A stretch of 64,000 nt of DNA, from assembly GCA_016180435.1 (NCBI GenBank), contig JACPBG010000002.1, positions 60,342-124,341 of the forward strand, read 5' to 3'. Numbering within the stretch: position 1 is the first letter of the stretch; every line of letters begins with the position of its first letter. This document shows positions 1 through 59,060 of the stretch, in pieces. A model generated the notes under the pieces. The model had not been told where the DNA came from. It did not search any database and worked only from the letters and a program-made list of their open reading frames with translations. Both the position numbers and the translations under genes were made by a program. The stretch is from Candidatus Sungiibacteriota bacterium. GTDB taxonomy: Bacteria > Patescibacteriota > Minisyncoccia > Sungbacterales > HO2-52-23.

Positions 1-947
1 TTCCTAACCCGGATGTGATGTGTAACCGTCATATTAAGTTCGGGCTGTTTCTTAAACGTGCTCTGAAAGAGGGGGCGGATTTTATAGCGACCGGACACTA
101 TGTGCGCTTAAGCGCAAGAACTAAGAGCTTAGAACTTAGAACTAAGAAAAATCTGATGCTAAGTTCTAAGTCCTATATTCTAAGTTCTGCGGCCGATGCC
201 GCCAAGGACCAGTCCTATTTCCTTTGGACTCTTGCGCAAGACCAATTAAAACATTGTCTTTTTCCGATCGGGGAATACACTAAGCCCGCGGTACGGGAAA
301 TGGCGCGAAAATTCGGTTTGCCGGTTGCGGAAAAGCCGGATTCGCAAGGAGTGTGTTTTATCGGGGAATTTGACATGAAAGAATTTTTAAAAAAGCGGAT
401 TCCAGAATCGCGCGGACCGGTTGTGACAACCAGCGGCAAAAAAGTGGGGGAGCATGAGGGGCTTTCGTTTTATACCATTGGACAGCGACATGGGATGGGG
501 ATTGGGGGCCGCCCCGCAGAGCGGGGCGAGCCTCGCCCCAAAGGGGCGGGCGGGATTCCATATTATGTCGTGGCTAAGGATTTTAAAACCGACACGCTTA
601 TTGTCGGAGAGGGGCCTTATGACGAGAAATTATTCAAGAAAGAACTTATCGCCACAAATGTAAATTGGATTTTCGGGAAAGAGCCAAAATTACCTTTAAA
701 ATGCGAGGCGCGAATTAGGTATCGCCAGCCGTTACAACGCTGTCGCGTTGAAGCAAATAAAGAACTTAGAACTAAGAACTTAGAAAGAAAACTAAGTTCT
801 AAGTTCTATATGCTAAATGCTTGCCGCGTCAAAGTTATTTTTGATGCGGTACAACGCGCCGTAACTCCCGGCCAGTCAGTGGTATTTTATCAGGGAGATG
901 AAATGTTGGGGGGCGGAATTATTTACCCCGTTAGAGATGCGGAATAA
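1..947 (+). CDS. mnmA: tRNA 2-thiouridine(34) synthase MnmA, 5'-truncated at window edge; carries three in-frame repeat insertions
   Basis: ORF 15..947 is open to the window start. Contains GADFIATGHYVR, KDQSYFLW, ARIRYRQ and VTPGQSVVFYQGDEMLGGGII, typical of the MnmA C-terminal half. Confidence 0.85.
   Translation, partial: PNPDVMCNRHIKFGLFLKRALKEGADFIATGHYVRLSARTKSLELRTKKNLMLSSKSYILSSAADAAKDQSYFLWTLAQDQLKHCLFPIGEYTKPAVREMARKFGLPVAEKPDSQGVCFIGEFDMKEFLKKRIPESRGPVVTTSGKKVGEHEGLSFYTIGQRHGMGIGGRPAERGEPRPKGAGGIPYYVVAKDFKTDTLIVGEGPYDEKLFKKELIATNVNWIFGKEPKLPLKCEARIRYRQPLQRCRVEANKELRTKNLERKLSSKFYMLNACRVKVIFDAVQRAVTPGQSVVFYQGDEMLGGGIIYPVRDAE
113..190. repeat. TAGAAC-family palindromic element inserted in frame in mnmA (extra peptide RTKSLELRTKKNLMLSSKSYILSS)
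   Basis: agaactaagagcttagaacttagaactaag...ctaagttctaagtcctatattctaagttctg; the same unit family occurs in intergenic copies elsewhere in the window. Confidence 0.7.
508..561. repeat. GC-rich palindromic element (GGGGCGAGCCTCGCCCC core) in frame in mnmA (peptide RPAERGEPRPKGAGG)
   Basis: cagagcggggcgagcctcgccccaaaggggcgggcgggattc; a near-identical copy lies in gdh at 54571 and an inverted copy at 52578. Confidence 0.7.
759..826. repeat. TAGAAC-family palindromic element, second in-frame copy in mnmA (peptide NKELRTKNLERKLSSKFYMLNA)
   Basis: aaagaacttagaactaagaacttagaaag...ctaagttctaagttctatatgc. Confidence 0.7.
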
Positions 948-1096
948 AATAATGCTGGCGTGGATACATTTGATTGCGGAACAGATATTATTCAAAGTTT
1001 TATCTTGTACTAAATCTCTAACGACGGGGTTGACTCTTAAATCGGCTTATGCTACATTGCGTCCAGTACTTTAATTTATATACAGAGGATAAAGTC

Positions 1097-1723
1097 ATGG
1101 AAGAGAAGAAAAGCACTAACGTAAAGCGCGGAGAGTGGTTGAAATTTGCGTATGACGTCTTTCAGAAAGCTAAGGGGGAGGGCCTTCCTTTTATTTCTCC
1201 GTCCAGTTTTGTAACCAGGGTAACGGAGTTTGCGGGAAAGTCAGACCGGAATTATAAACATCTTTACCAGATTCCCGGGCTTAGGCGGGCTGTTGATTTT
1301 CTTTTGCAGTGCGGAGCAATTGAGCGCATAGAAATAGAAAAAGAAGAAGGTAATGCGCATGGTTTTCGTATTACCGCGAAAACTATTTTGCCTGAAGTGC
1401 TTGCGGCCGAGTTTAATTCTATACGGGTACAAAAGAAGACGCGAGCATCAGAGCAGACCGATTCTGAGGATGTTTCAACCTTAGAGCTTGTTGGTCAGGT
1501 GGTTCTGGAACTTGCAAAACTTGAAAAAGTAAGAGAAGAACGTCTTCAGGCGGCCGAAGATGCGGTTAGCAAGTTGCGTTCGGATGCGTCCGGTGCGCTG
1601 GCGTTATCTAGGCATGCCATGGAGCTCCGGCAGAATCTTGTTGACGCATTGCAGAAGTTGCGTGCGCAAAATTCATCCAGCCAACCCGTTGTAAAAATGC
1701 GGCGTGCGAGACAATCAGTATGA
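1097..1723 (+). CDS. hypothetical protein with coiled-coil C-terminus
   Basis: ORF 1049..1723; start taken at ATG 1097 behind AGAGGA. Its stop overlaps the rpoD start by 4 bp (ATGA). Confidence 0.45.
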
Positions 1724-57471: not shown

Positions 57472-57668
57472 ATTAACCCCCCCCCGCATTCATTGAATAT
57501 GTGATTATTGTTGCACAGAAACGATCGAGCAAAATCCTCGCTTTCGGATAGATGGATGCTATGCAGTGCCGCTTCTGCAGCAAGTGCCCGAACTAGTGCT
57601 GGAAAAACTTTGGAATACAGCGCCAATTCGATCTTGTCGGCCTTTTTCTCTATTTCTTCAGGTTCCAT
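57468..57668 (-). CDS. hypothetical small protein
   Basis: 66 aa, coupled to the downstream gene. Confidence 0.25.
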   Translation of the reverse strand: MEPEEIEKKADKIELALYSKVFPALVRALAAEAALHSIHLSESEDFARSFLCNNNHIFNECGGGLI

Positions 57669-57785
57669 TATGCCTCCGATCTTTAATGGGTATTCGTGTA
57701 AAGGTTCAATTGTTGTACACTATATAATATATATTCTATTATGTCAATAGATTTAGATGTTTGGATATAATATAATCTTTATTAT

Positions 57786-59060
57786 ATGCGTCAGTCCATA
57801 TTATTTGGAAAAACGCTCCGTAAGGGGCCCAAAGACGAGATTTCAAAAAATGCCAACCTTTTGGTTCGCGGCGGTTTTGTGGCCAAAGAAATTGCCGGAA
57901 TATATTCTTTTTTACCGCTAGGTCTCCGGGTGCTTGATAAGATAGCCAGGATTATACGCGGAGAAATGAATGATGTTTTGGGAGCACAGGAGATTCTGAT
58001 GCCCGCACTCCACCCGATCGAGAATTACCAAAAAACCGGACGCGAAAAAATCGATGTGCTTTTTCACACGGAACTTGCATCAGGCGGCAAGTTGGTGCTT
58101 GGCCAAAGCCATGAGGAGATCGTGGTGCCCCTGGCAAAGCATTTTATTTCATCCTACCGCGATCTGCCGCTTGGGCTTTATCAAATTCAGACCAAATTTC
58201 GCAATGAACTTCGCGCTAAATCAGGCATGCTCCGCGGCCGCGAATTTATGATGAAAGATCTTTATTCATTTCATGCGGATGAAAATGATTTTGAAAAATA
58301 TTATGAGCGGGCGAAGATCGCATATAAAGATATTTTTGAAAAAGCCGGTTTAGGCGGACAAACCTATCTTACATTTGCCTCCGGCGGGACATTTTCCAAG
58401 TACTCCCATGAATTTCAGACCATAACCGAGGCCGGAGAAGACACCATTTATCTTTGTAAAGAATGTAAAATTGCGATAAATGACGAAATTATCGGGGAAC
58501 AGAAAAATTGCCCGCAATGCAATGCGCCTATAGCCAAATTATTGCAAGAAAAAGCAATCGAGGTCGGGAATATTTTTCCCTTAAAAACCAGATTTTCGGA
58601 CGCCTTTGGCTTGTCTTATATCGACAAATCAGGCCAGACGCATCCTGTGGTAATGGGATGCTACGGGATAGGATTGGGACGCGTTTTGGGCGCGATTGTA
58701 GAGGTACATAACGATAAAAACGGCATTATTTGGCCGGAAAGTGTGGCGCCGTATAAAGTGCATCTGATAGAACTTAGAACTAAGAATTTAGAACTTAGTG
58801 ATGATCCGGTACGCGGGGCAGCCGAAAAGTTATATAACCATCTGCTTGCTAAAGGAATTGAAGTGTTATACGATGACCGCGACGATAAAACAGCCGGAGA
58901 GAAATTCACGGATGCGGATTTGATAGGAATCCCGTGGAGAGTGGTTATTTCGGAGAAAACCGTTCAGCGAAATGCAATAGAAGTTAAAAAGCGTGATTCA
59001 CCCGGGAGTGAGTTGATGTCTGTGGTAAGTTTTCTCCAGAATTTAAAAGTAAAAATGTAA
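57786..59060 (+). CDS. proS: proline--tRNA ligase, compact form without the INS editing domain; in-frame TAGAAC element in the anticodon-binding domain
   Basis: LRVLDKIARIIRGEMNDVLGAQEILMPALHP; motif 2 FRNELRAKSGMLRGREFMMKDLYSF; C-terminal anticodon-binding fold. Confidence 0.8.
   Translation: MRQSILFGKTLRKGPKDEISKNANLLVRGGFVAKEIAGIYSFLPLGLRVLDKIARIIRGEMNDVLGAQEILMPALHPIENYQKTGREKIDVLFHTELASGGKLVLGQSHEEIVVPLAKHFISSYRDLPLGLYQIQTKFRNELRAKSGMLRGREFMMKDLYSFHADENDFEKYYERAKIAYKDIFEKAGLGGQTYLTFASGGTFSKYSHEFQTITEAGEDTIYLCKECKIAINDEIIGEQKNCPQCNAPIAKLLQEKAIEVGNIFPLKTRFSDAFGLSYIDKSGQTHPVVMGCYGIGLGRVLGAIVEVHNDKNGIIWPESVAPYKVHLIELRTKNLELSDDPVRGAAEKLYNHLLAKGIEVLYDDRDDKTAGEKFTDADLIGIPWRVVISEKTVQRNAIEVKKRDSPGSELMSVVSFLQNLKVKM
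58767..58800. repeat. TAGAAC-family element in frame in proS (peptide IELRTKNLELS)
   Basis: atagaacttagaactaagaatttagaacttagtg. Confidence 0.65.

Follow-up and report, generated by a model that had tools for sequence, protein, structure and literature searches.

Rickettsia palindromic elements (RPEs) are small palindromes of a reduced genome that lie between genes and also, in frame, within housekeeping genes, where they encode fold-compatible peptides (PMC10969869). Repetitive extragenic palindromic (REP) sequences and the REP doublets forming hairpins (REPINs) make up genome-specific populations of short hairpins, occur at orthologous positions and as doublet hairpins, and are presumed to be mobilised in trans in single-stranded form (PMC3116915, PMC3337134, PMC3733652); a REP is defined as a GC-rich palindrome of 20-40 nt whose foot bears a conserved GTAG or CGTC tag (PMC3733652). 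The TAACTGA repeats of Beggiatoaceae, Cyanobacteria and Bacteroidetes are located between stop and start codons and in ribosomal operons, contain, in one orientation, stops in all frames, and have occasional copies inside open reading frames (ORFs) (PMC4679880). Organellar palindromes include the palindromic microsatellites of Fusarium mitochondrial DNA, the double-hairpin elements of Allomyces and the hairpin repeats of sponges (PMC7218506; PMC2800124). Here, we analyze a palindromic element built of TTAGAAC heptamers in a 64,000-nt stretch (hereafter, the window) of the Candidatus Sungiibacteriota genome GCA_016180435.1, a member of the Candidate Phyla Radiation (CPR), where it lies between genes, mostly those of ribosomal proteins, and in frame within mnmA, gdh and proS. 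We consider it, with a probability of about 0.6, to be a non-autonomous, hairpin-forming mobile repeat that is lineage-specific and tolerated in spacers and protein loops.

A search of the window for the 15-mer CTTAGAACTTAGAAC, allowing up to 2 mismatches, returned 30 matches against 0.07 expected, and the exact heptamer TTAGAAC occurred 31 times against 6.9 expected. The TTAGAAC matches group at nine loci, comprising seven full hairpins and two half arrays, in or beside mnmA, rpsM, rpsK, rpsD, rplQ, rplM, a DUF3105 gene, trxB, gdh and proS; the identities of all these genes were borne out by Pfam, with trxB appearing as a thioredoxin-reductase-like gene. The MnmA, GDH and ProRS proteins have Candidatus Sungbacteria database entries of 100% identity. 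Copy counts refer to the window, which is part of the source genome. They substantiate the palindromic multi-copy family proposed in a first-pass annotation of this DNA, which had counted at least ten copies and placed five of them inside ORFs; we found nine loci, with four copies inside ORFs (two in mnmA and one each in gdh and proS). The fifth copy claimed for an ORF probably goes back to ATG 14644, a spurious start upstream of the actual rplM start at ATG 14668; the L13 Pfam profile begins at residue 8-10 of the long rplM ORF. Folding, proposed at the same time as a check, gave -20 to -33 kcal/mol and z-scores of -4.8 to -7.6 for the full inverted arrays (n=7), and among 200 shuffles per locus none (0/200) folded as well as any of the seven, which bears out the potential to form hairpins. 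The single arms in gdh and proS did not form the long hairpin on folding. The copies are dispersed singletons without regular spacing, which rules out a CRISPR array or an array of tandem interspaced guide RNAs (TIGR).

Alignment of the full copies revealed a single oriented plan of about 85-95 nt, consisting of a lead, a regular arm, a loop, an irregular arm and a second, small hairpin. The lead is A-rich, with TAAAG; the regular arm is made of four MACTTAG units; the loop between the arms is also A-rich and measures 6-12 nt; and the irregular arm contains four inverted units, for example CTAAGAT CTAAGTT CTTRAAT GCTAAGTT. Every arm has a period of 7. The copy between rpmJ and rpsM keeps this plan unchanged on the opposite strand and aligns as the reverse complement. 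Since the copies at 11697 and 52466 have identical irregular units, one derives from the other or both go back to a common master, as opposed to independent slippage.

A perfect-stem hairpin of at least 5 bp was found 3' of the irregular arm in 7/8 copies, compared with a frequency of 0.059 at random positions. The core of this mini-hairpin is TGCGAAGCA in the rpsK and rpsD copies, and this core stands beside four window copies belonging to two hairpin families. The trxB mini-hairpin is a variant, TGCCGAGCA, whose CGA loop places it outside the GCGNAGC motif, the so-called 'mini-hairpin DNA' that is extremely stable in single-stranded DNA and occurs in the priming and promoter hairpins of phages and plasmids (PMC13037366). 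In three window copies the mini-hairpin sequences differ from the TGCGAAGCA core. The mini-hairpins of gdh and rplM use native coding sequence as their 3' strand, and their 5' strand resembles this flank copied in inverted form.

Translation of a perfect (TTAGAAC)n array gives LELRT*NLE and that of its complement VLSSKF*VL, with a stop in all three frames. All three frames are closed in each of the five intergenic copies (5/5), while the four coding copies are all open (4/4). The changes that remove the stops are TAG to AAG in mnmA site 1, mnmA site 2 and proS (giving …ELRTK…), TAA to TAT in both mnmA copies, and, in the gdh copy, a 1-nt deletion exactly where the in-frame stop would fall. Peptides encoded by the coding copies include SLELRTK, NLMLSSK and TKNLELSDDPVR. 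At the sequence level, these stop-codon changes are strong evidence that the inserts would be translated and not skipped.

Relative to solved structures, MnmA is longer by 13 aa at site 1 and by 20 aa at site 2, and GDH and ProRS each exceed their solved homologues by 5 aa at the array. The GHY-to-DQS distance in MnmA is 35 residues here, against 16 in the shortest of 120 CPR MnmA homologues, and the ProRS loop at the array has 20 residues, the modal length being 15. In the AlphaFold model of the 408-aa MnmA (mean predicted local distance difference test score, pLDDT, of 89.3), site 1 is modelled as an extended two-stranded β-hairpin with strands 128-137 and 147-156, and site 2 as a low-confidence loop between the barrel strands 339-345 and 370-379. 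The two inserts coincide with the only low-confidence or extended-hairpin parts of the model, and their predicted positions are those expected to be permissive. The first-pass annotation was thus correct about in-frame residence in essential genes, as the frame is kept, the stops are removed and the segments are absent from solved homologues, and its suggested ortholog alignments of MnmA, GDH and ProRS did place the extra peptides at loop or β-hairpin positions. Its term 'insertions' suits mnmA, where full elements add 13 and 20 aa, and is less apt for gdh and proS, where single arms replace variable linkers with a net gain of only about 5 aa.

Between genes, the copies fit closely into the operon layout. 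The TAA of the lead doubles as the upstream stop codon in three copies (after rpsK, rplQ and the DUF3105 gene), a fourth lies directly after the rpsM stop, and the mini-hairpins of these four touch or include the next start codon. The stop-to-start placement claimed earlier for all the intergenic copies consequently applies to 4/5 of them, the reversed rpmJ-rpsM copy not following a stop directly. In 80 CPR relatives, the corresponding operon spacers measure either 1-20 nt or 65-330 nt; since empty spacers are only 1-20 nt long, any insertion must abut both the stop and the start codon. The fit of the intergenic copies looks designed and probably is not. Accordingly, placement at either end of ribosomal protein genes, as first described, is accurate for the position of most copies, and the meaning attached to it dissolves into the operon layout with its 1-20 nt empty spacers.

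Few Shine-Dalgarno (SD) sequences are present in the genome and many genes look leaderless. A TATAAT-like box was observed 7-15 nt before the ATG of proS, gap, holB and an ftsA-like gene, which suggests, from sequence, leaderless or very short-leader mRNAs. A reading of the element as a replacement for the SD sequence was rejected; most genes here do without one, so its absence at these starts is not special. An intrinsic terminator was rejected as well, as the element lacks a U tract and the plus-strand elements within 10700-15200, an interval with four of the nine loci, went uncalled; the one terminator call in that interval was a marginal match on the opposite strand. A scan of the whole window against Rfam matched no family at its gathering score.

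The long spacers of relatives are typically hairpins of inverted tandem repeats, and 7 was the best period in 38/101 of their mid-size spacers, with lineage-specific units such as CATGGAA, GAAAATT and CAGTGAG. Repeats are shared between spacers about nine-fold more often within a genome (15/128 pairs) than between genomes (103/8257 pairs), and one family filling several spacers per genome is the signature of genome-specific proliferating repeats. Sites 1 and 2 of MnmA are occupied in nearly all Sungbacteria homologues by other heptamer palindromes, encoding peptides such as SQIPNSKFQI and EFPISNFQFS…ENSLKIENCKLKI, several of them of equal length, and the GDH linker before the GxGxxG strand is variable likewise. 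In L178, a syntenic relative whose gdh DNA is about 85% identical, four AACCTAY units occupy the gdh site in a register equal to that of the window, and the DUF3105-trxB spacer contains a different hairpin. Other in-frame inserts were also observed in CPR MnmA proteins (P0002, P0027, P0028, P0030, P0053 and P0058): G(K/E)SFDKAQDK before the C-terminal GGG motif and a further family, SPHKSLRDLAGQAGG, near the N-terminus. In-frame repeat insertion looks general in the clade.

The roughly 0.5 Mb of CPR relatives' DNA that was searched has the TAGAAC unit only at the orthologous mnmA and proS sites. At the proS half array, identity with L178 extends over 46 nt, the longest such run in a gene that is 75.6% identical overall, with the next longest at 23 nt. 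The mnmA site-1 element is common to P0002 (70% protein identity), where the longest identical runs, of 26 nt and 22 nt, fall on the regular arm and on the mini-hairpin, respectively, and site 2 of P0002 has a GTATTAA-type hairpin. Relatives sharing the mnmA site-1 and proS copies have protein identities of 63-80%. These two copies are ancient and constitute the best-conserved DNA of their genes. The question of whether the repeat segments are ancestral, raised at first pass as a possible refutation, thus has a divided answer: the mnmA site-1 and proS copies are shared with relatives, and the shortest CPR MnmA orthologues lack the site-1 insert. The family is old in the clade and has expanded within the source genome; at some sites the occupant was exchanged within a short time. 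The sites themselves are hot spots, as relatives carry other heptamer hairpins there.

A cross-phylum scan of one genome per species recovered the pattern in 91 stretches, against about 0.5 expected by our own estimate. Fibrobacter genomes contain dozens of copies each; further carriers belong to Acidobacteriota, Planctomycetia, Alphaproteobacteria, Gemmatimonadota and Bacteroidales, and the copies in other phyla are almost all intergenic. In Fibrobacter, the arm after the loop is irregular, with CTAAGTT alternating with CTRCCAA, and the polarity is as in the window. GCG(A/T/G/C)AGC occurs in or just after this arm in 30/54 Fibrobacter copies; on the other side it is present in 1/54, and the background frequency is 0.025 per 60 nt. 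As unit, polarity, irregular arm and GCGNAGC all recur in Fibrobacter, the composite design is common to unrelated phyla, which points to horizontal spread or a common mechanism; the copies in Acidobacteriota and Planctomycetia, which lack the mini-hairpin, may be convergent. In two Fibrobacter genomes the orthologous nadE (L041 1539-3312, L066 1952-3675) has a TTAGAAC hairpin in both flanking spacers, so positions are conserved between species there too. The ORFs between such doubled Fibrobacter copies are the housekeeping nadE and no transposase. Viral contigs yielded one match, without the mini-hairpin, and hence give no sign of a phage vector.

We infer mobility from the copy number, the shared irregularities, the occurrence of both orientations, the genome-specific families and the patchy occupancy, and a single-stranded DNA route from the hairpin design together with the GCGNAGC motif. 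As a mobile repeat, the element would have multiplied within a Sungbacteria genome, with copies persisting where they do little harm, namely in short intercistronic spacers and at loop or β-hairpin positions. Genic copies would be translated, and only frame-keeping variants rid of the array's stop codons would persist, lengthening a β-hairpin or loop. The copying intermediate might be a single-stranded hairpin on which an enzyme from a gene located elsewhere acts in trans, and new copies may prefer, or overwrite, sites that already hold a hairpin.

Several observations weigh against this reading. Only 64 kb of the genome stands behind the copy number. Pfam revealed no transposase, REP-associated tyrosine transposase (RAYT) or other mobilising candidate among the 44 ORFs of the window, nor was one seen beside the doubled Fibrobacter copies. 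No pair of filled and empty alleles and no clean empty site could be defined, the closest relatives being too distant. Copy ends show no consistent direct repeat, and the terminal TA is indistinguishable from the repeat unit. Many orthologues have their other hairpins at exactly the same sites, several of equal length, and replacement in place or a drifting ancestral hairpin fits as well as repeated insertion. Moreover, no stretch of perfect conservation in proS and mnmA is longer than those at the regular arm and mini-hairpin, and such conservation suggests a selected role at the nucleotide level and not pure parasitism.

This last point leads to the main rival, in which the hairpins are selected cis-acting RNA or DNA signals (intercistronic processing or stability elements, masks of the start codon that couple translation within the ribosomal operon, or sites for a heptamer-reading factor) and the genic copies are by-products; it may coexist with a mobile origin through exaptation, and we hold it to be unlikely. 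It would account for the conservation of the regular arm and mini-hairpin, for the 4/5 intergenic copies that span from stop to start with a mini-hairpin overlapping or containing the start codon, for another, unrelated hairpin family that likewise ends in GTGCGAAGCA before the rpoA and frr starts, and for the hairpins of other sequence kept in the corresponding spacers of relatives. REPs stabilise mRNA 3' ends, a precedent that also favors it. However, one intergenic copy is inverted, and empty 1-20 nt spacers exist at every position in many relatives, which means that no spacer needs a hairpin. The copies in mnmA, gdh and proS have no obvious regulatory logic, neither an Rfam match nor a terminator-like U tract was found, and missing SD sequences are unremarkable in a genome where most genes lack them.

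A very unlikely alternative, in our estimation, is an origin in place, with slippage of heptamers making the array and strand switching making the inverted arm, the result being palindromic microsatellites that never moved. In the account of Mrazek (2007) given in PMC4679880, no other long simple repeats are as frequent in prokaryotes as heptamers, which presumably reflect polymerase slippage. Unit number does differ between orthologous Fibrobacter copies, the gdh genes of the window and L178 have four-unit arrays of different units in equal register, and the 5' strand of the gdh and rplM mini-hairpins resembles the inverted native flank. Independent slippage would nevertheless not give nine loci alike in unit, 4+4 count, lead and loop composition and irregular units. 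Families that are genome-specific across several spacers, and the recurrence of unit and GCGNAGC module in an unrelated phylum, also count against it. Finally, as assemblers may be misled by short repeats and the DNA comes from a metagenome-assembled genome, a chimeric contig or repeat-induced misjoin was considered. To this explanation we give practically no credence, as an identical mnmA with both insertions was obtained from four independent run assemblies, ORFs are open through every coding copy, and gene order is syntenic with GCA_001001625.1 over about 20 kb, with an identical proS array there; the misassembly named at first pass as a possible refutation is excluded by the same evidence.

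A wider and more tentative proposal, which we regard as possible and do not favor, is that heptamer hairpins with a GCGNAGC mini-hairpin form a distinct cross-phylum class of self-propagating elements, copied as single-stranded hairpins and homing into or overwriting earlier hairpins at fixed sites, such that the sequences in CPR 'hairpin slots', located between cistrons and in protein loops, would turn over with the resident family. If true, this class would be a major unrecognised source of lineage-specific insertions in CPR proteins. CPR genomes are among the smallest and most streamlined, and yet at least four small palindromic repeat families occur here, several of them inside essential enzymes. 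Should this be general, as the MnmA and GDH homologues suggest, it would explain many length differences and 'unalignable' loops of CPR proteins, affect gene calling and start-site prediction, and provide a natural catalogue of positions that tolerate insertions of 15-25 residues. The fixed sites with changing sequence, together with the Fibrobacter likeness, lead to the testable question of how hairpin repeats move or are replaced without an obvious transposase.

Table 1. Copies of the TTAGAAC element and their mini-hairpins, in window coordinates.
Feature	Position	Strand	Details
Full element in mnmA, site 1	116..202	+	Regular arm 116-149, loop, irregular arm 160-188; z -6.4
Mini-hairpin of mnmA site 1, GCGGC-CGAT-GCCGC	189-202	+	
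Peptide of mnmA site 1, ARTKSLELRTKKNLMLSSKSYILSSAADAA	116..202	+	TAG to AAG
Full element in mnmA, site 2	758..821	+	Peptide KELRTKNLERKLSSKFYMLNA; z -5.7
Full element in rpmJ-rpsM spacer, reversed	11224..11306	-	z -6.4
Mini-hairpin of rpmJ-rpsM copy, GGCTC-TTAC-GAGCC	11224-11237	-	Adjoins rpmJ stop (rpmJ, 11107-11223)
Full element, whole rpsM-rpsK spacer	11697..11786	+	z -5.4
Mini-hairpin of rpsM-rpsK copy, ATGTTGC-GAA-GCAACAT		+	Reaches 1 nt into the rpsK TTG start
Full element, whole rpsK-rpsD spacer	12231..12323	+	z -4.8; lead TAA 12228-12230 is the rpsK stop
Mini-hairpin of rpsK-rpsD copy, TTTGC-GAA-GCAAA		+	Overlaps the A of the rpsD ATG
Full element 3' of rplQ (TAA 14593-14595)	14596..14681	+	z -7.2
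Mini-hairpin at rplM, ATGCGATG-GAG-CATCGCAT	14663-14681	+	rplM start ATG 14668 inside
Full element 3' of DUF3105 gene (TAA 52463-52465)	52466..52551	+	z -7.6
Mini-hairpin of DUF3105-trxB copy, ACGTTGC-CGA-GCAACGT	52535-52551	+	Abuts remnant of original trxB start
Half element in gdh, four irregular-arm units	54708..54766 (units 54708-54741)	+	One unit cut to 6 nt
Mini-hairpin in gdh, 11 bp	54742-54766	+	3' strand is native VAIQG coding sequence
Half element in proS, regular arm only	58768..58799	+	Peptide ELRTKNLEL

The window contains other repeats. A GC-rich palindrome with the core CGGGGCGAG(C/G)CTCGCCC makes up a second family, located at 507-558 (mnmA), 54570-54621 (gdh) and 52577-52612 (before trxB). 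Its copies in mnmA and gdh share 92% identity and use different reading frames; each is a clean 42-nt in-frame insertion (+14 aa) that close orthologues lack. The original 5' end of trxB (TTG TAT GAC GTT ATC…) persists as an out-of-frame remnant upstream of the GC-rich element, 21/24 identical to the start in a relative (52551-52650), and the present start, ATG 52622, begins a second, diverged copy of the remnant's nine codons; this amounts to a duplication of roughly 27 nt flanking the GC-rich insertion. A third family has terminal inverted repeats, CCCCGTTAGARAC…GTYTCTAACGGGG, with TTAGAAC in its ends, and occurs at 54150-54214 (gdh) and 61001-61105 (intergenic, 3' of the ORF at 60213-60998). 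The gdh copy is a 66-nt in-frame insertion that is absent from L178, and PVR…SNG-like peptides are found in other CPR proteins; no further CCCCGTTAGARAC elements were found in the loci retrieved for comparison. The two copies of the fourth family (12953-13062 and 29547-29659) are 94% identical, fold at -41 to -47 kcal/mol and fill the rpoA and frr upstream spacers. After each copy comes GTGCGAAGCA(T/C), which immediately precedes the start codon and has the same TGCGAAGCA core as at rpsK and rpsD.

A structured repeat of 120 nt lies upstream of rpmJ, rplQ and mreB (10958-11077, 14068-14187 and, in part, 23888-23967); its copies are 93% identical, reach -62 to -76 kcal/mol with flanks, have the paired segments GCTAAGGGTCGG…CCTCCCATTGTC and gave no Rfam match. 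It may be a leader RNA or one associated with a promoter. Between rplM and rpsI, at 15024-15060, lies a direct array, (CTAACAA)x5. The rpsI start is probably miscalled, as the longest ORF of this gene has 78 additional N-terminal residues ahead of the S9 domain. A small CxxC…CxxC ORF (36039-36203) lies between inverted arrays of related heptamers, TTTAGAA upstream (35941-35987) and TTCTAAN downstream (36246-36275), and this arrangement resembles a hairpin element whose loop contains a gene. We also observed a 133-nt inverted pair (28177-28309 and 43108-43240, 83%), a 73-nt direct pair (47243-47315 and 63670-63742, 79%), a 100-nt palindrome at 50817-50917, and two large paralogous ORFs (38635-40593, 652 aa, and 41377-43101, 574 aa) that contain internal repeats and match nothing in Pfam.

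Returning to the TTAGAAC element, its comparison with known systems favors some of the affiliations first proposed for it over others. Like a MITE, a miniature transposable element with inverted repeats, it is shorter than 300 bp, has no coding capacity of its own, is present in many copies and has inverted terminal arrays. However, a MITE has unique DNA between its two ends whereas here the whole element is a hairpin, and membership was not supported: the 44 window ORFs include no transposase domain, and neither a parent insertion sequence in the 64 kb nor a consistent target duplication was seen. Assignment to the REPs likewise fails, as the GTAG/CGTC tag is missing and the location is not purely extragenic. 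It resembles REPs and REPINs in its genome-specific hairpin population, orthologous persistence and doublet-hairpin layout, but it has AT-rich 28-nt arms of tandem heptamers and 4/9 of its loci lie inside ORFs, and no RAYT was found in the 64-kb window. The likeness to RPEs, in contrast, held up, in that a palindromic repeat resides in frame in unrelated housekeeping genes at fold-compatible positions. The resemblance, drawn from published descriptions, concerns location and in-frame peptides, since RPEs measure about 100-150 bp, have family-specific unique sequence, are restricted to Rickettsia, and are without heptamer arrays or a mini-hairpin module. The first-pass interpretation was therefore right in kind, too specific about family and too generous on the meaning of gene ends. 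Its remark that no such elements were established for CPR genomes agrees with the literature we searched (CPR/Patescibacteria, MITE, REP, palindromic repeats, and a literal sequence search), which held no description of them.

The heptanucleotide repeats are the nearest structural relatives. The cyanobacterial short tandemly repeated repetitive (STRR) sequences and the TAACTGA repeats also have a 7-nt unit arranged head to tail, a patchy distribution across phyla and stop/start positions, but they form direct arrays of variable length, whereas here an AACTTAG unit is arranged in a fixed 4+4 inverted hairpin with a mini-hairpin. An STRR is reportedly present within a helix of cyanobacterial RNase P RNA (attributed to Vioque, 1997). 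The organellar palindromes are similar as mobile-looking simple-repeat palindromes, optional between close genomes and in some cases double-hairpin; they are mitochondrial, have other sequences, and in the cited fungal study cause no indels in coding sequence. The GCGNAGC / GCGNNAGC mini-hairpin is elsewhere a signal on single-stranded phage or plasmid DNA, and here it is a module of a dispersed chromosomal repeat. What sets the element of the window apart from every system with which we compared it is that copies able to reside in frame in essential genes are built as an inverted heptamer array of fixed 4+4 count joined to a mini-hairpin module.

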